The notes: a model not told the origin generated them from the sequence alone. A DNA stretch of 64,000 bases from Oscillospiraceae bacterium (GCA_015067765.1 SVLV01000003.1:36372-100371), one strand, 5' to 3'; positions 16,626 to 63,216 are shown, counted from the first letter of the stretch. Translations and numbers: made by a program.

Positions 16626-16675
16626 GTGGGTGAGCGGGGCATACTAAGGCAAAACACTGCAAGGGGGAATTGTCT

Positions 16676-17647
16676 GTGTGCACGGCGCTGACCTATCACA
16701 CCAAAGACCACTATTTCGGCCGCAATCTGGATCTGTCCTATTCTTACGGGGAGACGGTGACCGTCACGCCCCGCAACTATCCCTTCCGGTTTCGCGGCGG
16801 GATGCAGCTGAATCATCACCACGCCATGATCGGCATGGCCTGTGTACGGGAGGGGTATCCGCTGTACTACGATGCCGTCAATGAGTGTGGGCTGGCCATG
16901 GCCGGGCTGGAGTTTCCGGGGGCGGTGTATGAGCAGCAAAGGGCGGAGCGGGACAATGTGGCCGCCTTTGAACTGATCCCGTGGCTGCTGGGACAGTGTG
17001 CCACGGTGGAGGAGGCGGGTCTTCTGCTGGGACAGCTCAGCCTGTGGGAGGAGGCCTTCTCTGCGCAGCTGCCGCCGGCACCCCTCCACTGGATGGTGGC
17101 GGATCGGGAGGAATGCATTGTGGTGGAGCCCATGGCGGAGGGTCTCCGGATTCACGACAACCCGGTTGGGGTGATGACCAACCAGCCGGACTTCCCCTTT
17201 ATGCAGCAGTATCTAACCATGTTCCGGGATCTGTCCCCGGCACTGTCCGTGAACCGTCTGACGGACCGAATGGACCTGCCGGTGTTCTGCCACGGTTTGG
17301 CAGCGGTGGGGCTGCCGGGGGACTGGTCCTCCCCCTCCCGGTTTGTGCGGGCGGCCTTCGCGCGGCTCAATGCCGTATCCGCGGCGGGGGAGGCGGAGAG
17401 CGTGGGACAATTTTTCCACCTGCTGGGCACGGTGGAGCGTCCCCGGGGCTGCGTGCAGCTGGAGGGAGGGCGGCAGGACATCACGGTCTACTCCTCCTGC
17501 TGCAATCAGGACCGGGGGATCTACTACTACACCACCTACGAAAACCGCCGCATCACGGCGGTGGATCTCCATGGGGAGGAGCTGGAGGGAGACGGGGTGG
17601 TTTCCTATCCCCTGCGGACGGAGCAGGATATCCTCCGGCAGAACTGA
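16676..17647 (+). CDS. Choloylglycine hydrolase family (bile salt hydrolase / penicillin V acylase; Ntn hydrolase)
   Basis: GTG start gives M-C-T-A (N-terminal Cys nucleophile); FGRNLD, YDAVNECGL, GVMTNQP, LPGDWSSPSRFVRA. Confidence 0.9.
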   Translation: MCTALTYHTKDHYFGRNLDLSYSYGETVTVTPRNYPFRFRGGMQLNHHHAMIGMACVREGYPLYYDAVNECGLAMAGLEFPGAVYEQQRAERDNVAAFELIPWLLGQCATVEEAGLLLGQLSLWEEAFSAQLPPAPLHWMVADREECIVVEPMAEGLRIHDNPVGVMTNQPDFPFMQQYLTMFRDLSPALSVNRLTDRMDLPVFCHGLAAVGLPGDWSSPSRFVRAAFARLNAVSAAGEAESVGQFFHLLGTVERPRGCVQLEGGRQDITVYSSCCNQDRGIYYYTTYENRRITAVDLHGEELEGDGVVSYPLRTEQDILRQN

Positions 17648-26071: not shown

Positions 26072-26929
26072 ATGGATCGGGAAACATTGCGGAAAGTGCA
26101 GCTGGTGCAGCTGGAGATCGCCAAAGAGGTCAAACGGGTCTGCGAGGAGAACGGGATCTCCTACTGGCTGGATTCCGGCACCCTGCTGGGCGCCGTGCGC
26201 CACAAGGGATTCATCCCCTGGGATGATGACCTGGATCTGGGCATGCTGCGGGAGGACTATGAGAAGTTCCTGCAGATCGCCCCGGGGAAGCTGAAAGAGG
26301 AGTATGTGCTGCTGTGCTGGCAGCTGGATCCGCAGTATCCCCATCAGTTTGCCAAGGTGATGAAGCGGGGGACGGTATACCGGGAGGAAGCCCACTATGG
26401 CAGTTCCTTCGATGGCATCTTTGTGGATGTGTTCCCCTATGACCAGATGCCGGATGAGCCGGGAGAGATTCGGTGGGTGGGCTTTCGTCTGATGGCCTAC
26501 CGGGCCATGATCCGGGCCAAGTGCGGCCACAGGACCTGGACGGTCAACGGAAAGTTCTATGTGAAGCGCTGGTTGAAGAATCTGCCCTTCCGTTTCCTGA
26601 GCCTGTTTTTCGGCAGAAGAGCTCTGCGGGAGCGGTCCGACCGGCTGTCCTGCCGCTACAACGGCACAGAGTTTGCGTACTGCACACCTCAGGGTGTGTT
26701 TGACTATCCGGAGTGGCGGATGCCGCTGCGGTATTTCACCGAATTGACCCAGCTGCCCTTTGAGGGGGAACGGTTCTCCGTTCCGGCGGATTACGACGGC
26801 TATCTGACCTGTGCCTATGGGGACTACATGACCCCGCCTCCGGAGTCGGAGCGGGAGGACCGTCACTCCATCGTTGAGGTGAAGTTCGGCGATGAGAGTG
26901 ATACATACACCTGTGTGGAGCGAAACTGA
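26072..26929 (+). CDS. LicD-family phosphotransferase
   Basis: GTLLGAVRHKGFIPWDDDLD, IFVDVFPYD, YGDYMTPPP. Confidence 0.95.
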   Translation: MDRETLRKVQLVQLEIAKEVKRVCEENGISYWLDSGTLLGAVRHKGFIPWDDDLDLGMLREDYEKFLQIAPGKLKEEYVLLCWQLDPQYPHQFAKVMKRGTVYREEAHYGSSFDGIFVDVFPYDQMPDEPGEIRWVGFRLMAYRAMIRAKCGHRTWTVNGKFYVKRWLKNLPFRFLSLFFGRRALRERSDRLSCRYNGTEFAYCTPQGVFDYPEWRMPLRYFTELTQLPFEGERFSVPADYDGYLTCAYGDYMTPPPESEREDRHSIVEVKFGDESDTYTCVERN

Positions 26930-34241: not shown

Positions 34242-34739
34242 ATGGATTTGAGAAAACTGGAGGCGAAAGATGCGCCCCTGATGCTGGAATGGATGCACGA
34301 CCCTGATGTGGTGAAGGACCTGCAGGCCAATTTTGCCGCCAAAACGCTGGCGGACTGTGAACGGTTTATCGCCGCGGCACAGGATCCGGCGGAGGATCTG
34401 CATCTGGCGGCAGTGAATGAAGCGGACGAATATCTGGGCACGGTCAGCCTCAAGCATATAAACCGGACGGCCGGTACGGCGGAGTTTGCCATCACCGTGC
34501 GTCGCTGCGCTATGGGGACAGGGGCATCCCGTCAGGCCATGGCGGAGATCCTGCGGCGTGGCATCCGGGAACTGGAGTTGCGGGAGATTTTCTGGTGTGT
34601 GGACCGGCGCAATACCCGGGCGGTGCGTTTTTACGACAAGAACAACTATGAGCGGGTCGTGTCTGTGCCCCGGCAATGGACCGAGCCCTATGATGCCGGT
34701 TTGCTGCCGGAGTTGATCTGGTATCGGTATACCGGATGA
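34242..34739 (+). CDS. GNAT N-acyltransferase, probably acylating the dTDP-3-amino sugar
   Basis: RimJ/RimL-like GNAT (LEWMHDP, YLGTVSLK, NTRAVRFY); same locus as fdtA/fdtB. Confidence 0.8.
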   Translation: MDLRKLEAKDAPLMLEWMHDPDVVKDLQANFAAKTLADCERFIAAAQDPAEDLHLAAVNEADEYLGTVSLKHINRTAGTAEFAITVRRCAMGTGASRQAMAEILRRGIRELELREIFWCVDRRNTRAVRFYDKNNYERVVSVPRQWTEPYDAGLLPELIWYRYTG

Positions 34740-36016
34740 GGAGTGAGGAGACCATGAATGCAGTAAAAAAACTGGCGGTGCGGGTATCTTATAAGTGCAG
34801 AGAGTTTTGGGAATACCGGGCTGCCCGGCGGGATATGCGTGCACTGGCGGAAAAAGTGCGGGCTGACGGACCGGTTCGTGTGGTATTTATCACCCAGTAT
34901 GTGCCGGCCTGGAACAAGGTGAAGGGCCTGTACGAGGAGCTGCGGCGCAGGGAGAACACGGAGGCATACATCCTGTGTGTGCCCTCGGGGATCCGGGGCG
35001 GCCGGCTCCTGGATGAGGGGGACTTGTCCAACGACACCTATGACTACTTTATCGGCCAGGGGTATGAGGCCATCAATGCGCTGGTGGGGAAGAATCAGTG
35101 GTTCGACCTGCAGAGTCTGCAGCCGGACTATGTGTTTCACCCACGGCCCTACAACGATTTCATGCCTCCGGTGTATCAGAGCAGCCAAGTCCGGAAATAT
35201 GCAAAGCTGTGCAACATCATGTACGGCCCGGCGCTTACCTACAACGGGCTGAAAACTACGCTGAACCGGGACTATCACAAGGACCTGTGCAAGTATTTTG
35301 CCACCACCACGGTGGAGGCGGATTACTGGAATGACCGGTTTTCCGGCGGCGTGCGGCAGGGACTGCAGAAGGCCTATGCCATCGGCAACCCGGTCTTTGA
35401 GGAGCTGGCGGCCTGCCGCGGCGGGGAAGACGTTCAGCGGCCCACCTTTCTGTGGTCCCCTCGGTGGACCACGGACCCGGCAGCCGGCGGCACCAACTTT
35501 TTCACCTACCGACAGGTGCTCAATCGTTATGCGGCAGGGCATCCGGACACGGAACTGATCGTGCGGCCCCATCCGCTGATGTTCCGGACACTGGTGGAAA
35601 AGGGCGACATGACCCAGCAGGAGGCAGATGATTACCGGCAGCAGCTGCAGCAATTGCCCAATGCCCGGCTGGATGAAGCGAAGGAATACACGAAGATGCT
35701 GTGGCAGACCACGGCGCTGATCAGCGACATCTCTTTTTTGGTGGTGGAATACTTCACCACCGGTAAGCCGGTGATCTACTGTCCGCCGGCCCAGCCCTTC
35801 CCCAATCTGCCCTGGGTGGATCGGATGCTGGAGGGCTGCTATATCGTGCATAACGAGACGGAACTGGTACAAGCTGTGGAGCAGTTGGCGAGAGGAGAGG
35901 ATCCTCTGTATCAGCGGCGTCAGCAGCTGATTGAGGAACTGTTCGGCGGTGTGGCAGGCAGTGCCTCACGCATTGCCGATGTGCTGGTACAGGATGCCGG
36001 CGGCAGAAAAGGATAA
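34736..36016 (+). CDS. CDP-glycerol glycerophosphotransferase-like (TagB/TagF family) protein
   Basis: LWSPRWT, IVRPHPL, ISDISFLVVEYFTTGKPVIY. Confidence 0.75.
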   Translation: MRSEETMNAVKKLAVRVSYKCREFWEYRAARRDMRALAEKVRADGPVRVVFITQYVPAWNKVKGLYEELRRRENTEAYILCVPSGIRGGRLLDEGDLSNDTYDYFIGQGYEAINALVGKNQWFDLQSLQPDYVFHPRPYNDFMPPVYQSSQVRKYAKLCNIMYGPALTYNGLKTTLNRDYHKDLCKYFATTTVEADYWNDRFSGGVRQGLQKAYAIGNPVFEELAACRGGEDVQRPTFLWSPRWTTDPAAGGTNFFTYRQVLNRYAAGHPDTELIVRPHPLMFRTLVEKGDMTQQEADDYRQQLQQLPNARLDEAKEYTKMLWQTTALISDISFLVVEYFTTGKPVIYCPPAQPFPNLPWVDRMLEGCYIVHNETELVQAVEQLARGEDPLYQRRQQLIEELFGGVAGSASRIADVLVQDAGGRKG

Positions 36017-37210: not shown

Positions 37211-37225
37211 GAAGACTGAATAACG

Positions 37226-37260
37226 AACAGACGCTCGCAAGAGCGTCTGTTTTTTATTTT
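37226..37260 (+). terminator. Intrinsic terminator ending the polysaccharide operon
   Basis: AACAGACGCTC-gcaa-GAGCGTCTGTTTTTT. Confidence 0.88.
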
Positions 37261-37316: not shown

Positions 37317-37345
37317 TTGCAACCGCGTTCAAAATAGGATACAAT
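37317..37345 (+). promoter_or_regulatory. Sigma-A promoter of the APC permease / HTH-cytidylyltransferase operon
   Basis: TTGCAA-17-TACAAT. Confidence 0.65.
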
Positions 37346-37537
37346 AGCGGATGAAAATGAGCAAAACGCCTTGCGGGGCTGTTTTGCTCATTCCAGCGAG
37401 AGAACCTCCATGCCGGATCCGGCGCACAATATATAAATTCGCTCACCGCAGGCCTGCGGTGTTCTGCCTCAAAGAGGCAGAACAAGGGGCTTTCGGTGCG
37501 GAAGGGGAGCAATGACTCCCGGGAAAGGATATGGGAT

Positions 37538-38947
37538 ATGAGTACGAACAATAATGGACAGGTGAAACTGAAAAGAAGTCTGAATCCCTTTGCGGTCTGG
37601 GCGCTGGCCTTCGGCTGCATCATTGGATGGGGATCCTTTTTCAACCCCGGTCTGAAATTTCTGCCCACCGCAGGTCCGCTGGGTACGGCTATTGCCATGC
37701 TGCTGGGTGCCGGCATCATGGTGATCATCGCCTGCTCCTATAACTACCTGATCCCCCGGTATCCTGTGGCCGGCGGTGAGTTCGCCTACACCATGGCCAT
37801 TTTCGGGCCCAAGCATGCCTTCATCTGCGGCTGGTTTCTGGTGCTGGCCTATCTGACCAATGTGCCCATGAACGCCACCACGCTGGGCTACATGACCCGC
37901 TTCCTCTTTGAGGGGTGGCTGCAGGGTCAGCACCTGTGGACGGTTGCAGGCTTTGATGTGTATCTGGGTGAGGTGCTGCTGTCCGTGGCGGCGATTCTGC
38001 TGCTGACGGTATTCTCCATCCGGGGTGTGAAGGTGGCCGGTGTGGTCCAGTCCATTTTTGCCATCTCTTTGGCGGTGTCTGTGGTGGTCGTTGCCATTGC
38101 GGCTCTTTGCAGCCCCTACACCCACTGGGAGGACCTGCTGCCCCTCTTCAAGCCCACCGCCCAGTCCACCGGCGAGGCGGTCAGCGGTGTGGTGGCCATT
38201 CTGGCGCTGGCACCCTGGGCTTATGTGGGCTTTGACACCATCCCGCAGTCCTGCGAGGAGTTCAACTTCTCCCAGAAGAAGGTGTTCCGGATCATGCTGG
38301 TGGCCATCGCTTTCGGCGCATTTGTCTATATCTCCAATACGCTGGTGGCAGCTACGGCTCTCACTGAAAACTATACGGAGGCCATTGCCAACCCCGAGAT
38401 CAGCTGGCTGCTGGGCTATGCGGTGAAGAACATGCTGGGCTGGCCCGGTCTGGTGATTCTGGGCATCGCCCTCTCCTGTGCCATCCTGACGGGCCTGCTG
38501 GGCTTTTTGACAGCCACCAGCCGTCTGATGTATTCCATGGCCAACAGCGGCTACCTGCCCGCCTTTTTCGGTCATCTGAATCCCAAGACCCAGACCCCTG
38601 TGAAGGCGCTGTTGTTCTGCATGGCGGTCTCTCTGGTGGGTCCGTTGTTCGGCCGCGTGGCTCTGGGCTGGTTTGTGGACATGAGCGCTATCGGTGCCGC
38701 CATCGGATTTGCCTATACCTGCTTCGCCGCCCGGGTGACGGTGAAGGAGCGCAGGGATGTGCCCCACTGGAAACGCACCGCTGTGCTGGCGCTGGTGGGC
38801 GGCTGCATCTCCCTGCTGTTTATCGTCATGTTCCTGCCGGGTCTGCCGGCGGCACTGACGGTAGAGGGTTTCATCATGCTGGGGGTTTGGATCCTGTTCG
38901 GTGTGATCTTCTACTTTACCCGCAGCAAGAAGAATTTTGCAGTGTAA
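37538..38947 (+). CDS. APC-family amino acid/amine permease
   Basis: ALAFGCIIGWGSF, PVAGGEFAY, PWAYVGFD, TSRLMYSMA; 12 TMs. Confidence 0.92.
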   Translation: MSTNNNGQVKLKRSLNPFAVWALAFGCIIGWGSFFNPGLKFLPTAGPLGTAIAMLLGAGIMVIIACSYNYLIPRYPVAGGEFAYTMAIFGPKHAFICGWFLVLAYLTNVPMNATTLGYMTRFLFEGWLQGQHLWTVAGFDVYLGEVLLSVAAILLLTVFSIRGVKVAGVVQSIFAISLAVSVVVVAIAALCSPYTHWEDLLPLFKPTAQSTGEAVSGVVAILALAPWAYVGFDTIPQSCEEFNFSQKKVFRIMLVAIAFGAFVYISNTLVAATALTENYTEAIANPEISWLLGYAVKNMLGWPGLVILGIALSCAILTGLLGFLTATSRLMYSMANSGYLPAFFGHLNPKTQTPVKALLFCMAVSLVGPLFGRVALGWFVDMSAIGAAIGFAYTCFAARVTVKERRDVPHWKRTAVLALVGGCISLLFIVMFLPGLPAALTVEGFIMLGVWILFGVIFYFTRSKKNFAV

Positions 38948-38980
38948 TCATAAGAAACAAAAGACAGAGAGGAAAAGACA

Positions 38981-39865
38981 ATGCTTTCCAAACGCGAATT
39001 TGATATTCTTGTGCTGCTGACCCAGCGGCAGTCACTGACCCAGCGGGAGCTGGCGGAGCAGCTGCAGGTGTCAGTAGGCACGGTCAATAAGACGCTGCGG
39101 GATCTGAAGGAACATGGCTACTGCCGGGACGGTGTGATCACCGACGACGGTCTGCAGGCGCTGGAGCCCTACCGGGTGCGCCGCGCCATCTTTCTGGCGG
39201 CAGGCTTCGGCTCCCGGCTGGTGCCCATTACCTTCAACACCCCCAAGCCCCTGGTGCGGGTCAACGGTCAGCGGATGATCGACACCCTGCTGGATGCAGT
39301 GACGGCCGCCGGGATCCCGGAGATTGTCATTGTGCGGGGCTATCTGGGGGAGCAGTTTGACCAGCTGCTCTACAAGTACCCCAACATCCGCTTCGTGGAA
39401 AACCCCATGTACAATGAGAGCAACAACATCTCCTCGGCCATGTGTGTGCGCTATCTGATGCAGAACGCCTATGTGCTGGAGGCGGACCTGATCCTCAGCA
39501 GCCCCCACCTGATCCGCAAGTATGAGTATCAGACCAACTTCCTGGGTATCCCCGTGGAGGTCACCGACGACTGGTGCTTCTATACCGATCACAACGGTAT
39601 CATTACCCGGCAGGCGGTGGGCGGCACCAACTGCCATCAGATGGTGGGCGTTTCCTATTGGAGCGCCGAGGACGGTGCCAAGCTGGCCAGTGATCTGGAC
39701 GAGGTGTTCCGTTCCCCCGGCGGTAAGGAGCGCTACTGGGAGCAGACGGCGCTGCTGTACAAGAAGGAGAATTACAAGGTGGCCGTCCGGGAGTGCGGCT
39801 TCGAGGACATCATTGAGATCGATTCCTTTGCGGAACTGAAGCAGGTGGACCACAGCTACTGCTGA
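38981..39865 (+). CDS. Winged-HTH + LicC/PntC-like cytidylyltransferase fusion (copy 1)
   Basis: TQRELAEQLQVSVGTVNKTL HTH; LAAGFGSRLVPIT..PKPLVRV, NNISS, EADL, RYWE, EIDS. Confidence 0.88.
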   Translation: MLSKREFDILVLLTQRQSLTQRELAEQLQVSVGTVNKTLRDLKEHGYCRDGVITDDGLQALEPYRVRRAIFLAAGFGSRLVPITFNTPKPLVRVNGQRMIDTLLDAVTAAGIPEIVIVRGYLGEQFDQLLYKYPNIRFVENPMYNESNNISSAMCVRYLMQNAYVLEADLILSSPHLIRKYEYQTNFLGIPVEVTDDWCFYTDHNGIITRQAVGGTNCHQMVGVSYWSAEDGAKLASDLDEVFRSPGGKERYWEQTALLYKKENYKVAVRECGFEDIIEIDSFAELKQVDHSYC

Positions 39866-40002
39866 GAGAAACTGTTCCAGAAATCCTGTTTTTTCGGGGA
39901 TATGGAACAGGGAAGAGATTCCATGTCCTTCCTGTTTTCGAAAAAACTGAACAGTTGGCTCCCCGGGAAAATGTGAACTTTTCGGAAACGACAGAAAAAT
40001 GC

Positions 40003-40030
40003 TTTACATCCTATGAGGATGTGCTATAAT
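40003..40030 (+). promoter_or_regulatory. Sigma-A promoter of the ABC importer operon
   Basis: TTTACA-16-TATAAT with extended -10 TG; the spacer contains the palindrome ACATCCT-atg-AGGATGT. Confidence 0.6.
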
Positions 40031-40223
40031 GAAACCACAAAAAACTTGCACCGACGGCGCAAGTTTTTTGTTCCCCTTTATGTTCAAAAAAATGCAAAAT
40101 GCATAAAATGATGAACAATCAGGCTGTTCATTACAGCTTGCTGCGTGGACAAAACGGAACGGGGAAACGAGGAAACAGGAACAATTGGCTTGTTCGGCAA
40201 GCCCGTGAGGAAGGAATCGTGTT

Positions 40224-41198
40224 ATGAAGAAATTTTTTGCATTTGTTCTGGCTCTGGCCTGTGCACTGTCGCTGATGGCCTGCTCCGGCGGTAAGGAGCA
40301 GATCGTCATCTACACCAGCGCCAACGACTCCCGCATTGCCCATATGACCGGCATGCTGGAAGAGAAGTTCCCCGACTATGAGTTTATTGTGGAGTATCAG
40401 TCCACCAGCAAGGTGACGGCCAAGCTGGCGGCTGAGGGCACTGCCACCGAGTGCGACATCATCCATGACCTGGCCTATCTGAGCCTGGCTCAGCTGGATG
40501 GCAAGGGGATTTTGGCTGACCTGAGCAGCTACGATACCTCCGTCTATACGGACGATTGCGTGGTCAGCCCCAACTATCTGGTGGAGCTGCGTACCGGCGG
40601 CGCCATCATCCTCAACACCAAGGTGATGCAGGAAAAGAATCTGCCCACCCCCACCTGCTATGAGGATCTGCTCAAGCCCGAGTACAAGGGCCTGATCTCC
40701 ATGCCGGATCCCAAGTCCTCCGGTACCGGTTATATGTTCCTCAAGTCCCTGGTGAACGCCTGGGGTGAGGAGAAGGCCTTTGATTACTTCAAGAAGCTGT
40801 CTGAAAATGTGCTGCAGTTCACCTCCTCCGGCAACGGCCCTGTCAATGCCCTGATCCAGGAGGAAGTGGCCATCGGTCTGGGTATGACGGCCAACGCCGT
40901 GGTGCAGATCAATGAGGGCGTGCCCCTGCAGGTGCTGTTCTTCGAGGAGGGTTCTCCTTATTCCATGTATGGCCAGTCCATCATCAAGGGCAAGGAGCAG
41001 CGCAAGTGCGTGAAGGAAGTGTTTGACTATCTGATCAACACCTACACCGCAGAGAGCTGCAGACTGTATGCCCCCGAGAAGATCTACAAGGATGTGGACT
41101 TTGAGCTGGAGAACTTCCCCAAGGAAGTGAAGTATGCCGATATGTCCAACGATACGCTGGAGGAGAAGGAACGCCTGCTGGCCAAGTGGGACGTCTGA
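40224..41198 (+). CDS. ABC importer substrate-binding lipoprotein (AfuA/PhnS-like cluster)
   Basis: Lipobox LMAC, IVIYTS, PTCYEDLLKPEYKGLISMPDPKSSGTGY. Confidence 0.9.
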   Translation: MKKFFAFVLALACALSLMACSGGKEQIVIYTSANDSRIAHMTGMLEEKFPDYEFIVEYQSTSKVTAKLAAEGTATECDIIHDLAYLSLAQLDGKGILADLSSYDTSVYTDDCVVSPNYLVELRTGGAIILNTKVMQEKNLPTPTCYEDLLKPEYKGLISMPDPKSSGTGYMFLKSLVNAWGEEKAFDYFKKLSENVLQFTSSGNGPVNALIQEEVAIGLGMTANAVVQINEGVPLQVLFFEEGSPYSMYGQSIIKGKEQRKCVKEVFDYLINTYTAESCRLYAPEKIYKDVDFELENFPKEVKYADMSNDTLEEKERLLAKWDV

Positions 41199-41289
41199 TC
41201 AGAATCATACGGGTGGGCAGGCCGGGTTTCCGGTCTGCCCACACAGTGCGTTTAGAGAAACCGTGATTTTCAAGTAAGGAGCCTCACCC

Positions 41290-42051
41290 ATGGAACCGAT
41301 TTTACAGATTCGCAACCTGACCCACCGTTTTGATGAGAAAACGGCCCTCTCCAATGTAAGCTTCGATGTGAACGACGGGGAGTTTCTGGCCATTCTGGGC
41401 CCCTCCGGCTGCGGAAAGACCACCATTCTCCGGATCCTCATCGGCCTGCTGCAGCCCACAGAGGGCACGGTCACCATGGCCGGCCGGGACATTACCCATG
41501 TCTCTCCGGCGGAGCGCAACATGGGCATCGTGTTTCAGAACTATGCCTTGTTTGAGAATATGACCGTGCTGCAGAATGTGCAGTATGCCATGAAGATCCG
41601 TAAGGAGACCCGGGCGGAATCCCGCCGTGTGGCCGAGGAGATGCTGCAGCGGATGGGGTTGGCGGAGCATATGCACAAGCGGCCCAATGAGCTCTCCGGC
41701 GGCCAGCAGCAGCGGGTGGCCATCGCCCGGACGCTGGTGCTCCATCCCCGGGTGATCCTCTTTGACGAGCCCATGTCCGCCCTGGATGTGGAGACCCGTC
41801 TGACCCTGCGCAAGGAGATCAAGCAGATCCAGGCAGAGTTCGGCACCACCATGATCTACATCACCCACGACCAGGAGGAGGCCTTCGCCATGGCCGACCG
41901 CATCATGGTGATGGAGGAGTCCCGGCTGGTGCAGCTGGCGACCCCTATGGAGATCATTCAGCATCCCGCCGATGCCTATGTGCAGCGCTTCGTGCTGGAC
42001 AATCTGCAGATCAAGATCGATTCCCTGGCCAAGTATATCAATGTGAGGTAA
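41290..42051 (+). CDS. ABC importer ATP-binding protein (PotA/AfuC/PhnT-like, short)
   Basis: GPSGCGKT, VFQNYALF, LSGGQQQRVA, FDEP, ITHDQEEA. Confidence 0.95.
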   Translation: MEPILQIRNLTHRFDEKTALSNVSFDVNDGEFLAILGPSGCGKTTILRILIGLLQPTEGTVTMAGRDITHVSPAERNMGIVFQNYALFENMTVLQNVQYAMKIRKETRAESRRVAEEMLQRMGLAEHMHKRPNELSGGQQQRVAIARTLVLHPRVILFDEPMSALDVETRLTLRKEIKQIQAEFGTTMIYITHDQEEAFAMADRIMVMEESRLVQLATPMEIIQHPADAYVQRFVLDNLQIKIDSLAKYINVR

Positions 42052-42055
42052 GCCG

Positions 42056-43663
42056 ATGGGGAAGTTCTTGAAAGATAAACAGTTGGATGCCACCAAGCTG
42101 CTGCTTTCGGCGGTATTCATCGTGCTGGTGTTTTATCCCTTCCTGCAGATGGTGATTATGATCCAGCCGGAGGACTTCGGCCGGGTGGTGACTGCCTCCA
42201 ATTTCCCGGAGGCGGTGGCCAACTCCCTGCGGGCTGCCGTTACCACCACCGCCATCTCCGTCAGCCTTGGTATGGCGCTGGCAGCCTGTCTGCAGCGAAC
42301 CAATATCCGCGGGAAGGCGGTGCTCTCTGTGGTGCTGATCCTGCCCATGCTGATCCCCTCCATCTCCCACGGCATGGGGTTGATCGTGGTCTTCGGCACC
42401 AACGGAATCCTCACCAACCTGCTGGGGCTGGAGGGAACCATCTACGGCTTTGGCGGTATGGTGCTGGGCTCTGTGCTCTACTCCTACCCGGTGGCCTTCC
42501 TGATGCTCAATGATGTGCTGAAGTATCAGGACAGCTCCCCCTATGAGGCGGCAGCCGTGCTGGGCATCCCGCCGCTGCGCCGCATGACCGCCATCACCCT
42601 GCCCTATCTGGCCCGGCCTCTGGTGTCTGCCGTGTTCGCCGTGTTCACCATGGTCATCACCGACTACGGTATTCCGCTGATGATCGGCGGCAAGAATACC
42701 ACCCTGGCGGTGATGATGTATCAGGAGGTGCTGGGGCAGGTGGACTTCGGCAAGGGCAGCGTAGTGGGTCTGTTCCTGCTGATCCCCGCCATCATTACCT
42801 TTGTGTTCAATACCCTGTCCAAAAACCGGGCCAAGATGGGCTATGTGACCCGCCCCTTTGAGATGAAACGCAACTCCCTGCGGGACGGTGCCGCCTATGT
42901 GTTCTGCGGTGCGGTGCTGCTGTTTGTGGTGGTGCTGATCGGCTCCTTCTGTATGCTGGCCTTCACCACCCGCTATCCCAGCGACCTGACCTTTACCCTG
43001 GCCCATGTGCAGAAGATGCTGGATCTGGGCGGCGACCGGTATGTGACCAACTCGGTGATCATTGCTCTGTTCGTGTCGGTGATCGGCATTGTGACGGCCT
43101 TTGTCACGGCCTACATGACCACCCGTGTGCCCTCCCGGATGTCCCATTTCCTGCACCTGTGCTCCATTACCTCCCTGGCCATCCCCGGTATCGTGCTGGG
43201 CCTTTCCTATGCCCTGACCTTCAGCCGCAGCTTTATCTACGGTACCATGGCCATCCTCATTATGGCCAACCTGATGCACTTTTTCGCATCCCCCTATCTG
43301 ATGATGTACAATTCCCTCAGCAAGATGAATGAGAATCTGGAGAGTGTGGGCGCCACGCTGGGCATCAGCCGTCTGCGGATCGTGCTGCACGTGATCATTC
43401 CCCAGAGCAAGTCCACGCTGCTGGAGATGTTCTCCTACTTCTTCGTCAACTCCATGATGACCATCTCCGCTGTGTCCTTCCTGGCCAATGTGCGCACCAA
43501 GCCTCTGTCTCTGATGATCAACCAGTTTGAGGCGCAGATGCTGATGGAGTGCGCTGCGGTGGTGTCCCTGTGTATCCTGCTGGTGAATGTGTGCATCAAG
43601 GGGATGGTATACCTGATCAATCAACATGTGTCCAAGCGGCCGCCTGTCAATCCGGCCCGGTGA
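42056..43663 (+). CDS. ABC importer permease with duplicated domains (AfuB/PhnUV-like)
   Basis: Two EAA-type loops (YEAAAVLG; ESVGATLG), ITDYGIP. Confidence 0.92.
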   Translation: MGKFLKDKQLDATKLLLSAVFIVLVFYPFLQMVIMIQPEDFGRVVTASNFPEAVANSLRAAVTTTAISVSLGMALAACLQRTNIRGKAVLSVVLILPMLIPSISHGMGLIVVFGTNGILTNLLGLEGTIYGFGGMVLGSVLYSYPVAFLMLNDVLKYQDSSPYEAAAVLGIPPLRRMTAITLPYLARPLVSAVFAVFTMVITDYGIPLMIGGKNTTLAVMMYQEVLGQVDFGKGSVVGLFLLIPAIITFVFNTLSKNRAKMGYVTRPFEMKRNSLRDGAAYVFCGAVLLFVVVLIGSFCMLAFTTRYPSDLTFTLAHVQKMLDLGGDRYVTNSVIIALFVSVIGIVTAFVTAYMTTRVPSRMSHFLHLCSITSLAIPGIVLGLSYALTFSRSFIYGTMAILIMANLMHFFASPYLMMYNSLSKMNENLESVGATLGISRLRIVLHVIIPQSKSTLLEMFSYFFVNSMMTISAVSFLANVRTKPLSLMINQFEAQMLMECAAVVSLCILLVNVCIKGMVYLINQHVSKRPPVNPAR

Positions 43664-43676
43664 CGAGGAGAAGAAT

Positions 43677-44564
43677 ATGCTGACCAAGAAACAATTTGAC
43701 CTGCTGGTCTACCTGACGGAACAGACCGGCAGCCAGTCCCAGAGAGCCATGGCGGAGGGGTTGCATCTGTCGGTGGGCAGTGTGAACCGGGTGGTGAAGG
43801 AATTGACCCAGCAGGGGCTGGTGTGTGACGGACGCATCACGACCCAGGGCCTGGAGGCGCTGGAGCCCCACCGGGTGCGCCGCGCCGTGCTGATGGCGGC
43901 CGGTTTCGGCTCCCGGCTGGTGCCCATTACCCTCAATACCCCCAAACCGCTGGTGCGGGTCAAGGGGGTGCGAATCATCGATACCCTGCTGGATGCTCTG
44001 GTGGCGGCGGAGATCCCCGAGATCTATATCGTCCGCGGCTATCTGAAGGAGCAGTTTGACCAGCTGCTGTACAAGTACCCCATGGTCCAGTTTATTGACA
44101 ATCCCCTGTACAATGAGGCCAACAACATCGCCTCCATCGTCTGTGCCGGGGACCGGATCCGCAATGCCTACATCATGGAGGCGGATCTGCTGCTGAGCAA
44201 TCCCAGGCTGATCCAGAAGTATCAGTATCGCTCCAACTATCTGGCCATCCCCGTGGAGCGGACGGACGACTACTGCTTCCACCTGGAAAACGGCTTCATC
44301 AGTCAGGTGGCTGTGGGCGGTGTCAACTGCTATCAGACGGTGGGCATCTCCTACTGGACAGAGGAGGACGGCACCACCCTGGTGGACCATGTGAAGGAGG
44401 TCTATCAGGCCCCCGGCGGAAAAGAGCGCCTATGGGGTCAGGTGCCGCTGGTGTACCATGCCAACGACTACAAGGTGTCCATCCGCGAATGTACGCTGGA
44501 GGATGTGGTGGAGATCGACACCTTCCAGGAACTGAAGAATATCGACCCGACTTACGCTATGTAA
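43677..44564 (+). CDS. Winged-HTH + LicC/PntC-like cytidylyltransferase fusion (copy 2)
   Basis: SQRAMAEGLHLSVGSVNRVV HTH; MAAGFGSRLVPITLNTPKPLVRV, NNIAS, EADL, EIDT. Confidence 0.88.
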   Translation: MLTKKQFDLLVYLTEQTGSQSQRAMAEGLHLSVGSVNRVVKELTQQGLVCDGRITTQGLEALEPHRVRRAVLMAAGFGSRLVPITLNTPKPLVRVKGVRIIDTLLDALVAAEIPEIYIVRGYLKEQFDQLLYKYPMVQFIDNPLYNEANNIASIVCAGDRIRNAYIMEADLLLSNPRLIQKYQYRSNYLAIPVERTDDYCFHLENGFISQVAVGGVNCYQTVGISYWTEEDGTTLVDHVKEVYQAPGGKERLWGQVPLVYHANDYKVSIRECTLEDVVEIDTFQELKNIDPTYAM

Positions 44565-44580: not shown

Positions 44581-44616
44581 AAAAGCGCCCCGGATCTTTC
44601 CGGGGCGCTTCTTTTC
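44581..44616. terminator. Bidirectional terminator
   Basis: AAAAGCGCCCCGGA..TCCGGGGCGCTTCTTTT between convergent genes. Confidence 0.85.
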
Positions 44617-58656: not shown

Positions 58657-59244
58657 TTACTTCTTCTTTTTTCGTTTCAGTATGGCGGCCGCCTTGCGCA
58701 GAGGAGCGGTCAGGCGCCAGGAGGTGGAATGACGGATGGCGTTATACTTCTGTTCCATACGGCGGATCTGCTCCTGATAGGGGGCGGGGTCAGCATCTTT
58801 CAATGCCTGTTCCAGCCGGGCGATTTTTTCCTGATAAGGAGTGGGATCGGCATCTTTCAATGCCTGTTCCAGCCGGGCAATTTTTTCCTGATAAGGAGTG
58901 GGATCAGCATCTTTCAATGCCTGTTCCAGCCGGGCGATTTTTTCCTGATAAGGAGCGGGATCGGCATCCTTCAGTTTCCGTTTGAGCTTTCGGACCTGCT
59001 CGATGCGCGCAAAATCGAAGAGGGCGAAATAGTCCTCCTCTGTGAAGGAGATGGGGCCCTCTCCACCCATCTGCAGCCAGGTTTTATAGTATTGGGCCCA
59101 ATCGGTAACGGTGGTATGGGTCTGGATGATCAGGGGTGCATTGCGCATGGTCTCCAGACCATGGCAGAGTACCACAATGAACATAAGAAACAGGCGCAGA
59201 TTGTCAAAATAAGCGTCGCGTGATGCCGTGCCCTGATGAGACAT
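58657..59244 (-). CDS. Chimeric hypothetical protein: acyltransferase-3-like N-terminal fragment + 19-aa repeat helical region + SWRLTAPLR tail (possibly a deletion-derived remnant)
   Basis: RBS AAGGAGG; RDAYFDNLRLFLMFIVVLCH; (LKDADP[AT]PYQEKIARLEQA)x3.6; HSTSWRLTAPLRK. Confidence 0.65.
   Translation of the reverse strand: MSHQGTASRDAYFDNLRLFLMFIVVLCHGLETMRNAPLIIQTHTTVTDWAQYYKTWLQMGGEGPISFTEEDYFALFDFARIEQVRKLKRKLKDADPAPYQEKIARLEQALKDADPTPYQEKIARLEQALKDADPTPYQEKIARLEQALKDADPAPYQEQIRRMEQKYNAIRHSTSWRLTAPLRKAAAILKRKKKK
58772..58974. repeat. 57-bp coding tandem repeat, ~3.6 copies
   Basis: GCATCTTTCAATGCCTGTTCCAGCCGGGC recurs at 58793, 58850 and 58907, with a partial copy at 58964. Confidence 0.95.
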
Positions 59245-59263
59245 AGTTGGAAACCTCCTTCGC

Positions 59264-60310
59264 TTACAGCAATTCCTTGAGCACCTGTACCGTATGGGCG
59301 AGGCCGGTTTCGTGATCGAAAATACCTCGCCAGCCCAGTGCCAGCAGCTTTTCACTGTCCAGACTGGAGTTGTCCATGGGGTTGAAGGCGGCCTTCTCCG
59401 CAGCGGTGGGAGCATCTACCCGCAGCACCACTCCGGCAGATCGGGCGATGATCTCCGCCATCTGGCGGATGGTGATAATGGAATCCGGATTGGAGATGTT
59501 GTAGGCCTGCTTGCTTGCGCCCTGCAGCAGCACCGTCAGGGTGGCGGTGGCGCAGTCCAGACAGTGGCAGTAGGAGCGCAGCTGGGTGCCGGCACTCTTC
59601 ATCACCAGTTCCCGGCCCTCCGCTGCATCAAAGGCAAAGGCGGAGGAGATCCGCTTATCGCTGCGCTGGGCGGTGGGCCCGTAGATGTGGCCGGGCCGGA
59701 CGATGGACACATCCATGCCATACTGGTTGGCGTAGCTGACGCACAGGGTTTCGGCGGCACGCTTGCCCATAGGATAGGAAGCCCGGTCACCAAGGATATT
59801 CACCGTGCCATACTCATCCTCCCGGAAAGGTTTGCCGTGCCCTAAAACGCCATAGACCTCGCTGGAGGAGATGTATACCGTCTTTTGGGCACCGCAGCGC
59901 CGGGCGTACTCCAGCAACTCCCGCATGCCCAGAATGTTGGCCAGCATGGTATCCACCGGCTCGCTGACATACTTGTCAGGGCTGGCATTGCTGGCGCCGT
60001 GGATCACATAGTCTGTCGCAAAATCAAAAGCCAGCGGCTGGGTGGCATCGTACACCACGGGCACGAGGCCATGGCCAAGCCCGTGAGAAAAGCGATCTTC
60101 CAGCTTTTCCCGGCTGCGGCCGGCGGCATAGACGGTGATGTTCGCCTCCTGCATCAGGTTGGCCTGCAGCAGCAAATCCACCAGCGCCGAGCCAATGAGG
60201 CCCGAAGCGCCGGTGATAAGAATGCGTTTGCTTTGCAGCGCCTGCAGGTCCAAAACGGACAGGGCGCGGGTAAGATCGTCGCGGTAAGCGGCGCTGAGAT
60301 ACATATTCAT
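59264..60310 (-). CDS. NAD-dependent epimerase/reductase (probable CDP-pentulose reductase)
   Basis: TGASGLIG, HGASNASP, SSSEVYG, YPMGK, RSYCH. Confidence 0.85.
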   Translation of the reverse strand: MNMYLSAAYRDDLTRALSVLDLQALQSKRILITGASGLIGSALVDLLLQANLMQEANITVYAAGRSREKLEDRFSHGLGHGLVPVVYDATQPLAFDFATDYVIHGASNASPDKYVSEPVDTMLANILGMRELLEYARRCGAQKTVYISSSEVYGVLGHGKPFREDEYGTVNILGDRASYPMGKRAAETLCVSYANQYGMDVSIVRPGHIYGPTAQRSDKRISSAFAFDAAEGRELVMKSAGTQLRSYCHCLDCATATLTVLLQGASKQAYNISNPDSIITIRQMAEIIARSAGVVLRVDAPTAAEKAAFNPMDNSSLDSEKLLALGWRGIFDHETGLAHTVQVLKELL

Positions 60311-62316: not shown

Positions 62317-63216
62317 TTATGTATTCAGGTCAAACCGAAGAAACGCGTGCTTTTCGCGATCCGATTCGGTGGGGGGAGTCATATAATCCGCTCCATAACG
62401 GATGCGCAGATAATAGTGGGGGTCTTCCGGCAGAGGATACTGATGGCCGGAGAATGGGGCGATGCTGCCCCTGCACATTTTCTCCCGAAGAAACACCTCT
62501 CCGAAAAAGTGATTGTTGCCGCTGGGGATCCCGATTTCCCGGGAAGATGTATCCCGGCAGAGTGCAAAGGTTCGATCGGTGATAAGCAGCCACTTTTCCA
62601 GAGAGAAGAAACGAAAGAGTACAGCGAAAATGGCCCGCAACTTCACGGCAGAGCAAAGCTTTTGGCTATTGCTGCCATACCGGAGAAGGTTTTCTTTGCA
62701 GCGGTCCATCCGCATCACAGAAGTGATGGCCAGCAGCAATGTACACAAAAGCCCGTGGCCGGTGCGGAACAGGCGGGAATTGCTGATATTCTCCATAATG
62801 AAAATATCGATGGAGACACATTCCTGTGTGTCGGGAGCGGATTGGATGTTCTGTGCGGTGGTGTGCTTACGGTAAATCTTGGGGAACTGATACAGGTAGC
62901 CCGGATCACCCGGAAGTTTCAGCTCATAGCGATCAGAAAAGCGGCCTGGAAAGACTGCCTTGAACCGCTCAAAATCTGCCCGGAACATGGAGAGGTCCAT
63001 GTCATCATCCCAGGGGACGAATCCCCCGTGACGGACGGCACCCAGTGCACTGCCACCGGTGAGAGTCCAAGGGATGTCCTGCTCCTGACAGAGCGCAGCG
63101 ATATCGTCCATCATATTCAAAAGAAGATCATGAAGCTGCTGCAGTTCCTCATCGGTCACAATATGCAGATCCGGCGACAGGAGCTCCGCCGATTTGGTCA
63201 GTGCTGCAATGCCCAT
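62317..63216 (-). CDS. LicD-family phosphotransferase
   Basis: GGSALGAVRHGGFVPWDDDMD, IDIF, YGADYMTPP. Confidence 0.93.
   Translation of the reverse strand: MGIAALTKSAELLSPDLHIVTDEELQQLHDLLLNMMDDIAALCQEQDIPWTLTGGSALGAVRHGGFVPWDDDMDLSMFRADFERFKAVFPGRFSDRYELKLPGDPGYLYQFPKIYRKHTTAQNIQSAPDTQECVSIDIFIMENISNSRLFRTGHGLLCTLLLAITSVMRMDRCKENLLRYGSNSQKLCSAVKLRAIFAVLFRFFSLEKWLLITDRTFALCRDTSSREIGIPSGNNHFFGEVFLREKMCRGSIAPFSGHQYPLPEDPHYYLRIRYGADYMTPPTESDREKHAFLRFDLNT

Follow-up and report, generated by a model that had tools for sequence, protein, structure and literature searches.

The DNA analysed here is a 64,000-nucleotide window (the whole stretch, SVLV01000003.1:36372-100371) of the Oscillospiraceae bacterium assembly GCA_015067765.1, and the locus under study, a putative module for the uptake and activation of polysaccharide head groups, occupies positions 37,317 to 44,564. 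The five kinds of genes listed in an initial annotation made from the sequence alone are all present, all on the + strand, according to gene calls and profile scans of the window. Indeed, the module encodes an APC-superfamily permease, whose ATG start is likely and is preceded by a ribosome site, two copies of a winged helix-turn-helix (wHTH) domain fused to a LicC-like cytidylyltransferase (enzymes #1 and #2), and the substrate-binding protein (SBP), the ATPase and the fused double permease of an ABC importer (Table 1). The promoter-like sites and terminator-like hairpins fit the division proposed in that annotation into two transcription units, namely the APC permease with enzyme #1 and the ABC genes with enzyme #2. 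The G+C content of the module and of its third codon positions is similar to that of housekeeping genes of the same window. Close homologues are named from Oscillospiraceae and other Clostridia, and at least 8000 scored candidates passed the homologue search (8000/8000), so the wider family is large. Comparison of sequences makes it probable that the locus holds two separately derived cassettes that salvage ready-made phosphonate head groups and activate them with CTP for a surface glycan, and that are predicted to repress themselves.

The PF12804 fold, the GxGxR..PK motif and the metal ligands are present in both enzyme copies. The best solved relative of enzyme #1 is Streptococcus pneumoniae LicC (1JYK, E 6.7e-29, 31% identity), followed by Treponema denticola PntC (6PD1, E 1e-12), and its structure model (pLDDT 94) gives LicC (template modelling score, TM, 0.71) and then PntC (TM 0.67) as top fold matches. 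Enzyme #1 possesses K89, E167, D169, W198, Y252-W253-E254, E279 and D281, with the Trp198/Tyr252/Trp253 aromatic box, the metal ligands and the recognition helix intact. The two aspartates of the LicC choline pocket, Asp105 and Asp192, are kept in neither copy: they are both Glu in enzyme #1 (E167 and E254), as in Tde-PntC, where E104 was aligned directly and E196 was mapped only through LicC D192, and Glu/Gly in enzyme #2. In the text of PMC6697681 these positions correspond to Glu104 and Glu196 of Tde-PntC, and a narrower pocket against choline was suggested, without mutagenesis. In enzyme #2 the catalytic motif, the metal ligands and the recognition helix are kept, and the head-group pocket is altered, Trp being replaced by Tyr and YWE by LWG. 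In the 119-row alignment, the YWE pocket is found in 10/10 pepM-only, 51/58 APC-linked and 4/31 ABC-linked copies. Glu occupies the first pocket position in 102/102 rows with an aligned HTH region, a count that leaves out 17 rows without such a region, three of which are distant sulfatase-linked copies with Asp. The Asp/Asp pair is kept in 3/3 BCCT-linked, HTH-less LicC-like proteins. The pocket residues argue for a primary-amine head group. Separately, three distant copies (44-46%; L111-L113), with a decayed HTH, an Asp/Asp pocket and no exact operator, are located behind a sulfatase/phosphodiesterase-family gene, which suggests that a head group of choline type is released there and used again. 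L110, another distant copy devoid of the recognition helix, likewise has no exact operator.

The best models for the three ABC genes are those of the putative 2-aminoethylphosphonate (AEP) importer, i.e. phnS2 (which we take to be AepX), PhnT2 and PhnU2, far above thiamine, polyamine and iron models; for the SBP, the phnS2 score in Table 1 compares with 43 bits for thiamine and 33 for PotD. The ATPase is devoid of the C-terminal extension present in the TIGR03265 model. Aligned with the AfuA residues given in PMC4546632, the SBP keeps the phosphate-binding Thr150 as T168 and has Thr for Ser37, and the sugar ligands H205/D206/E229 are replaced by Ala223/Asn224/Ser247. All three ABC scores are below the NCBIfam cut-offs, and the sugar-binding motif of AfuA is not kept. 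Relatives of the APC permease (35-43% identity) also occur as proteins of about 990 aa (L121 1-2979), with matches of about 900-1045 aa in G274, G295, G102, G347, G302 and G317; by motif, the C-terminus of the L121 protein resembles a histidine kinase with a receiver-like region, and a transporter-sensor fusion is possible.

The host assembly measures 1.54 Mb and is 79% complete, and the genome-wide negatives hold at that completeness. No kinase of the choline/aminoglycoside type was found in the whole assembly (PF01633, PF01636 and tblastn with three kinase domains), nor any phosphoenolpyruvate (PEP) mutase over cut-off (profile search and tblastn); the initial annotation had reported no LicA, LicB or PEP mutase in the window. 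No EamA protein (LicB type) was found among the proteins scanned in the window. Ppd and BCCT were not found in the whole assembly by tblastn, and AepZ gave one partial aminotransferase match (25%). Neither PhnX (phosphonatase) nor PhnJ is encoded over cut-off in the genome. PhnX was likewise found in 0/34 relatives, a weak result since no control genome gave a positive signal either.

The synteny survey placed orthologues of the enzyme beside aepZ-pepM-ppd, the same APC family or the same ABC system. Among 21 GTDB loci found with enzyme #1, which were chosen by peptide patterns and are not an even sample, nine have aepZ-pepM-ppd directly downstream (TIGR03301, TIGR02320 and TIGR03297 over cut-off), eight the same APC family, three the same ABC system and one a divergent APC gene with a kinase fusion. 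Encoding near ppm, a trait of PntC-type enzymes, was not found here but is present in orthologues of 59-65% identity. Further synthesis-linked cases are L079, L075 and the metagenomic loci L145, L167, L173, L182 and L192 (two being near-duplicates of others), and in most of them the enzyme, the APC permease and the synthesis genes form a single operon. In a sample of 400 evenly drawn genomes of the order (at least 90% complete; one genome, drawn twice as L032 and L090, was counted once), 24 genomes carry the enzyme: 14 beside the ABC genes (one cut by a contig end), four beside the APC gene and six beside neither. PEP mutase is present in four of these 24 and choline kinase over cut-off in four; neither is found over cut-off in 12 of the 18 importer-type genomes, and 16 of these 18 near-complete genomes have no kinase over cut-off. 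Reciprocally, 51/80 metagenomic APC loci adjoin a LicC/PntC-type gene (39/53 with both flanks of at least 600 bp; near-duplicates kept), eight of the 80 belong to clusters in which ppd, aepZ or pepM is closely matched, other loci are in polysaccharide or AEP clusters, and some have no link. The order sample contains seven close APC homologues of full size, and 4/7 adjoin the enzyme gene.

In four ABC-type genomes pepM-ppd occurs without aepZ, in two of them with an Fe-alcohol dehydrogenase. L238 (3861-8123) and L239 (9390-13737) encode a fusion of an NTP-transferase with pepM, an Fe-alcohol dehydrogenase and ppd, a route of the hydroxyethylphosphonate (HEP) type, and the HTH-enzyme gene is there beside the ABC genes. 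L236 (6262-12453) and L237 (4866-11074) encode operator-headed pepM-ppd without aepZ, together with a metallophosphoesterase, an NAD epimerase, a DUF6564 protein and a dehydrogenase-like gene; the operons of L236 and L237 are an unfamiliar phosphonate pathway.

An inverted repeat, GTTCA-N25/26-TGAAC, is common to the regions upstream of the module genes. Among 91 stretches preceding module operons, two of which belong to the window and some of which are near-duplicates, it occurs exactly in 56/91 and with at most one mismatch in 69/91, compared with 0.03 and 1.2 in dinucleotide shuffles (n=30). The spacing is N25 in 34 cases and N26 in 24, with almost none at other spacings. Locus sequence totalling 1.71 Mb contains 87 exact sites, of which 84 are at the 5' ends of module genes. 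The motif surfaced when palindrome gaps were extended to 40; searches with short spacers (gaps to 15; expectation-maximisation widths 16-26) gave only promoter and AT-rich signals, and a palindrome spotted by eye within the ABC promoter spacer was not recovered as a shared motif. In the window, one candidate site covers the -10 hexamer of the APC promoter and two are located in the ABC leader, where they form a close pair, an arrangement that recurs nowhere else among the 43 sites of the assembly (background of 0.008 per 280 bp in the host genome). One of these is one of the two exact sites of the assembly; the other exact site (L240 3497, G000 C16), between genes for a Na+/alanine-family symporter and a PLP (pyridoxal phosphate) enzyme, may be due to chance. 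Beyond the regions in which the motif was discovered, pepM is remote from the enzyme gene in six relatives; a pair of sites heads the pepM operon in three of them, the operon is cut by a contig end in two, and no site is present at its head in one. No enzyme copy was found in the three operator-headed remote pepM operons. A genus-wide search for the operator pattern (32/98 genomes) contained many chance matches and was too noisy for co-occurrence.

The HTH residues Q21, R22, S31, G33 and N36 are conserved at 90% or more in 102 sequences and all are present in both window copies. Each of seven tandem pairs of one type includes a copy devoid of the recognition helix, and in 4/7 the HTH-intact partner has Gln for the catalytic Lys, as expected if enzyme and regulator functions had split. 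The half-sites are about three helical turns apart and would need a dimer with widely set HTHs; a homodimer prediction for enzyme #1 scored 0.02, which says nothing either way. The fused wHTH is predicted to repress the module promoters via the conserved candidate operator, whose presence at both promoters lends genuine support to the earlier proposal that each enzyme is its own regulator. Elsewhere, the operator heads L084 (8536-13846), where an HTH-LicC-kinase fusion is encoded with an NCS1 permease and with a protein that joins an NTP-transferase to a PLP domain resembling threonine-phosphate decarboxylase.

The relationship of the two cassettes was examined with a quick tree of 119 rows and a careful tree of 40 of these rows, hand-picked across contexts. 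In the careful tree, enzyme #1 falls within a supported clade (95/91) that also contains every pepM-only row and a mixture of APC- and ABC-linked rows, and enzyme #2 is placed outside this clade, nearest to L075. The topology joining both enzymes is rejected (approximately unbiased test, p-AU 0.027), a moderate result. Separate derivation of the two cassettes, as opposed to recent duplication, is moderately supported.

Table 1. Features of the module and of candidate transferase genes in the window
Feature	Position	Strand	Details
LicD1, candidate acceptor transferase, in rhamnose-containing polysaccharide operon	26072-26929	+	
Weakly TagF-like protein of the polysaccharide operon, alternative candidate transferase	34736-36016	+	NF046086 and TIGR04396 below cut-off; 23% over 198 aa, E 8e-6
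Terminator-like hairpin closing the upstream polysaccharide operon	37225-37252		
Predicted sigma70-like promoter, APC + enzyme #1 operon	37317-37345	+	9/12 consensus matches
Candidate operator, GTTCA-N26-TGAGC	37327-37362		One mismatch; covers the -10 hexamer of the APC promoter
APC-superfamily permease, candidate AEP importer	37538-38947	+	PF13520 E 2.5e-36; no NCBIfam cut-off reached
wHTH-cytidylyltransferase #1, 294 aa	38981-39865	+	HTH_24 at residues 3-47; PF00483/PF12804 from residue 69
Predicted strong sigma70-like promoter, ABC + enzyme #2 operon	40003-40030	+	11/12 matches, TG extension
16-pair hairpin directly after the ABC promoter, before the operators	40037-40071		Listed as terminator-like on the - strand
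Candidate operator, GTTCA-N25-TGAAC	40082-40116		Exact match, as at one other place in the 1.54 Mb assembly
Second candidate operator, ABC leader	40126-40160		One mismatch
ABC SBP, PhnS2/AfuA class	40224-41198	+	TIGR03261 204 bits, cut-off 393
ABC ATPase, PhnT2-like	41290-42051	+	TIGR03265 317 bits, cut-off 458; model positions 2-238 of 353
ABC fused double permease, PhnU2-like	42056-43663	+	TIGR03262 373 bits, cut-off 593
wHTH-cytidylyltransferase #2	43677-44564	+	60% identity to enzyme #1
Intrinsic terminator-like hairpin closing the ABC + enzyme #2 unit	44583-44610	+	
LicD2, in operon with TarI/IspD, epimerase, TagF and ABC-2 exporter	62317-63216	-	

The hairpin directly after the ABC promoter could end transcription of the preceding unit or be part of the leader. 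The only two LicD genes of the assembly (tblastn) are both in the window. The module had been described as adjoining a LicD-bearing polysaccharide operon: LicD1 is indeed encoded in that operon, but about 10.6 kb upstream and not next to the module. The second LicD was correctly placed at 62.3-63.2 kb. Transfer of the head group by LicD, as first proposed, is not established: LicD is found in 8/18 importer-type genomes of the order sample and was not found in the other 10/18, all near-complete, and there are TagF-like alternatives. In place of LicD, the module often has YidC-TagF or TagF-like genes at its flanks, and the weakly TagF-like protein of the polysaccharide operon has no PDB match by sequence search. 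In a quick tree with long branches, LicD2, whose operon is of the teichoic-acid type, shows a weak grouping with LicDs encoded in the same operon as the module in other genomes (SH-aLRT 96, 31-34% identity), and LicD1 is not placed. LicD2 may simply use CDP-ribitol, or the TagF of its operon could take this donor instead. YidC-domain fusions (600-950 aa) and TagF-like genes recur beside the module (L033, L036-L043, L097, L103, L106, L109 and others), and one 707-aa flanking protein carries both YidC and TagF domains. Further features of the window are an open reading frame in the LicD2/TagF operon (58657-59415, - strand) with about four tandem repeats of about 18 residues near its C-terminus and no Pfam match, and a bile salt hydrolase upstream of the polysaccharide operon (16670-17647, + strand; NF038245 over cut-off).

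Taken together, the sequence, context, pocket and motif evidence makes the salvage and activation steps likely. In this scheme, AEP likely enters the cell through the APC permease, and the substrate of the ABC system would be AEP, taken up with high affinity, or another small phosphonate related to it. CMP-AEP is the likely product of enzyme #1, which would need no kinase because the phosphonate already has its P-O nucleophile. Enzyme #2, with its changed pocket, likely takes another phosphonate as substrate or serves mainly as a sensor. Either a LicD or a TagF-like enzyme would then move the activated group onto the polysaccharide. The fused HTH would bind GTTCA-N25/26-TGAAC and, like BirA, shut off uptake when substrate or product is bound; in relatives, it would also shut off de novo phosphonate synthesis. 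The kinase-free import and activation of phosphocholine, phosphoethanolamine or AEP put forward in the initial annotation is thus supported in a form narrowed to phosphonates (AEP for enzyme #1), and phosphocholine is disfavoured by pocket and context.

A variant within this scheme is possible but doubtful: only enzyme #1 would be catalytically active, supplied with AEP by both importers, and enzyme #2 would serve chiefly to sense a ligand and repress the ABC operon. It would fit the pocket of enzyme #2, which is unique among the 119 sequences, the division of tandem pairs elsewhere into regulator-like and enzyme-like copies, and the nearest relative (L075/L145, LFE pocket), whose operon also encodes another cytidylyltransferase, devoid of the HTH, between pepM and ppd. 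However, enzyme #2 retains the GxGxR..PK motif and all metal ligands, and the pepM-ppd genes without aepZ in four ABC-type genomes point to non-amine phosphonates, e.g. HEP, as genuine substrates within this group.

Salvage of a phosphate ester by the cassettes (phosphoethanolamine, or phosphoserine/phosphothreonine), with kinase-free formation of CDP-ethanolamine, is improbable. A primary-amine pocket suits phosphoethanolamine as well as AEP, family members are located beside kinases in L031 and L078, the operator is common to kinase fusions, AfuA-class SBPs bind phosphate esters (as described in PMC4546632), and a TagF-like enzyme of Clostridioides difficile transfers from CDP-N-methylthreonine (as described in 10.64898/2026.02.12.704994). 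Nevertheless, the same enzyme clade, APC permease and operator recur in aepZ-pepM-ppd operons, and the ABC system ranks with putative AEP importers.

That the importers serve phosphonate catabolism, as a P or N source, and that the fusions are only regulators with a PntC-derived sensor domain seems very unlikely: the characterised importers AepXVW and AepP do serve catabolism (according to PMC8316502 and PMC10574752) and the catalytic Lys is lost in some copies, but enzyme #1 has a full catalytic set, its neighbours are glycan, LicD, TagF and synthesis genes, and the PhnX and PhnJ searches reported above, of which that in relatives is weak, were negative. An ordinary phosphocholine (lic) pathway, with its kinase and choline transporter in the unassembled fifth of the genome, is scarcely tenable, since the fold and sequence proximity to LicC, the aromatic box of enzyme #1, the two LicD genes and the incomplete genome are set against the replacement of both LicC aspartates by Glu, the 16/18 near-complete importer-type genomes without a kinase over cut-off, the separate branch of the BCCT-linked Asp/Asp proteins in the 119-row tree, and the 440-fold AEP preference of Ari-PntC, which is itself closer to LicC than to Tde-PntC (as described in PMC6697681).

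Several observations weigh against the phosphonate salvage reading itself. The nine pepM loci of the GTDB set are mostly of one lineage, pepM is adjacent to the enzyme in 0/24 order-sample copies, and three of the seven full-size close APC homologues have no adjacent enzyme gene. The enzyme family is paired with a choline/ethanolamine-type kinase in L031 and L078 and is thus not purely phosphonate-linked; the operator also precedes three HTH-LicC-kinase fusions (L084, L086 and L087), and not two others, and the pairing of regulator and operator therefore reaches beyond the phosphonate branch. The Glu/Glu pocket is equally compatible with AEP and phosphoethanolamine, and its significance is a suggestion in the text of PMC6697681. 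The APC permease matches no named NCBIfam family, the ABC scores are below cut-off, and the genome is 79% complete. The motif was found in the same 91 regions used for counting, near-duplicate loci included, and 22 of these have no site; an inverted repeat needs a dimer, and LicC and Ari-PntC are described as monomers in the text of PMC6697681. Finally, the co-occurrence of LicD with the enzyme in relatives is partial (30/54 enzyme-bearing genomes, 12/28 of the near-complete ones), and the six best genus matches of LicD1 (36-40%) are from genomes without the enzyme.

Most bacterial phosphonate capacity is held to serve surface decoration, yet PEP mutase is the marker by which producers are counted. 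Should salvage prove real, such counts miss carriers, given that 20/24 enzyme-bearing genomes of the order sample have no PEP mutase found. Tentatively, and with somewhat less than even confidence, we propose a new class of bifunctional enzyme-repressors, cytidylyltransferases of PntC fold whose winged helix would sense substrate or CMP-phosphonate and control a regulon of de novo C-P synthesis and salvage via a 35-36 bp operator, a first APC-family phosphonate permease, a salvage route by which gut Clostridia without PEP mutase decorate their surface with phosphonates that other organisms made, and, in this genome, two cassettes tuned to two different phosphonates. If true, this would add a new kind of AEP importer (APC family), a short operator for regulon reconstruction and another metabolic enzyme acting as its own repressor.

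As regards known systems, no paper was found on HTH-fused LicC/PntC enzymes, the operator or phosphonate salvage for decoration, in a search that mostly did not cover subscription journals. The module ABC system shares with AEP importers (PhnSTUV, AepXVW, phnS2/U2/T2) and AfuABC a PF13343 SBP, a fused double permease and the AfuA Thr150; unlike them, it is below all cut-offs and is linked to activation rather than to PhnWX/PhnWAY catabolism. Characterised AEP importers are described as ABC or facilitator types tied to catabolism in the text of PMC8316502 and PMC10574752. AEP has been noted on Bacteroides capsule (in the text of PMC12413058), and in the text of PMC8942020, from which the term salvage is absent, Fe-alcohol dehydrogenases are associated with HEP and AEP is cited as having been isolated from rumen protozoa. 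C. difficile FtaABCD (10.64898/2026.02.12.704994) is comparable in that its TagF-like enzyme, FtaD, moves a CDP-activated head group, N-methylthreonine, onto sugar, but it is a de novo amino-acid phosphate route on flagellin, and no importer or HTH fusion is described in the text available. The Lic pathway of S. pneumoniae and Haemophilus influenzae (LicB, LicA, LicC 1JYK/1JYL, LicD) follows the same logic of import, CTP activation and transfer, with LicC as the closest structure and its metal ligands and aromatic box conserved in enzyme #1; in contrast to it, the module has a fused wHTH and replaced Asp105/Asp192, no kinase found and no EamA in the window. BirA and NadR carry an N-terminal HTH on a nucleotidyl-transferring enzyme and have an operator before synthesis and uptake genes, that of BirA being also a wide inverted repeat. 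The module resembles them by its fused HTH and by a conserved candidate operator at its own and at synthesis and uptake promoters, but its catalytic fold and ligand are unrelated, and DNA binding and a dimer are only predicted by analogy. The Pnt pathway (Ppm-Ppd-AEPT and PntC; Ari1348, Tde1415; 6PD1/6PD2; PMC6697681), in whose main text no salvage route or HTH fusion is described, shares the fold, the GxGxR..PK motif, the Glu positions of Tde-PntC and a LicD/glycan neighbourhood, and orthologues of the module are co-operonic with aepZ-pepM-ppd. It differs in that the module has importers and no synthesis genes found, an N-terminal wHTH with a candidate operator, and two copies with different pockets. 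By analogy, the module, which is neither a lic operon, judging by its pocket, nor a textbook pnt cluster, no ppm having been found, would work like a Pnt pathway in which uptake replaces synthesis, and also like an enzyme-repressor of the BirA type.

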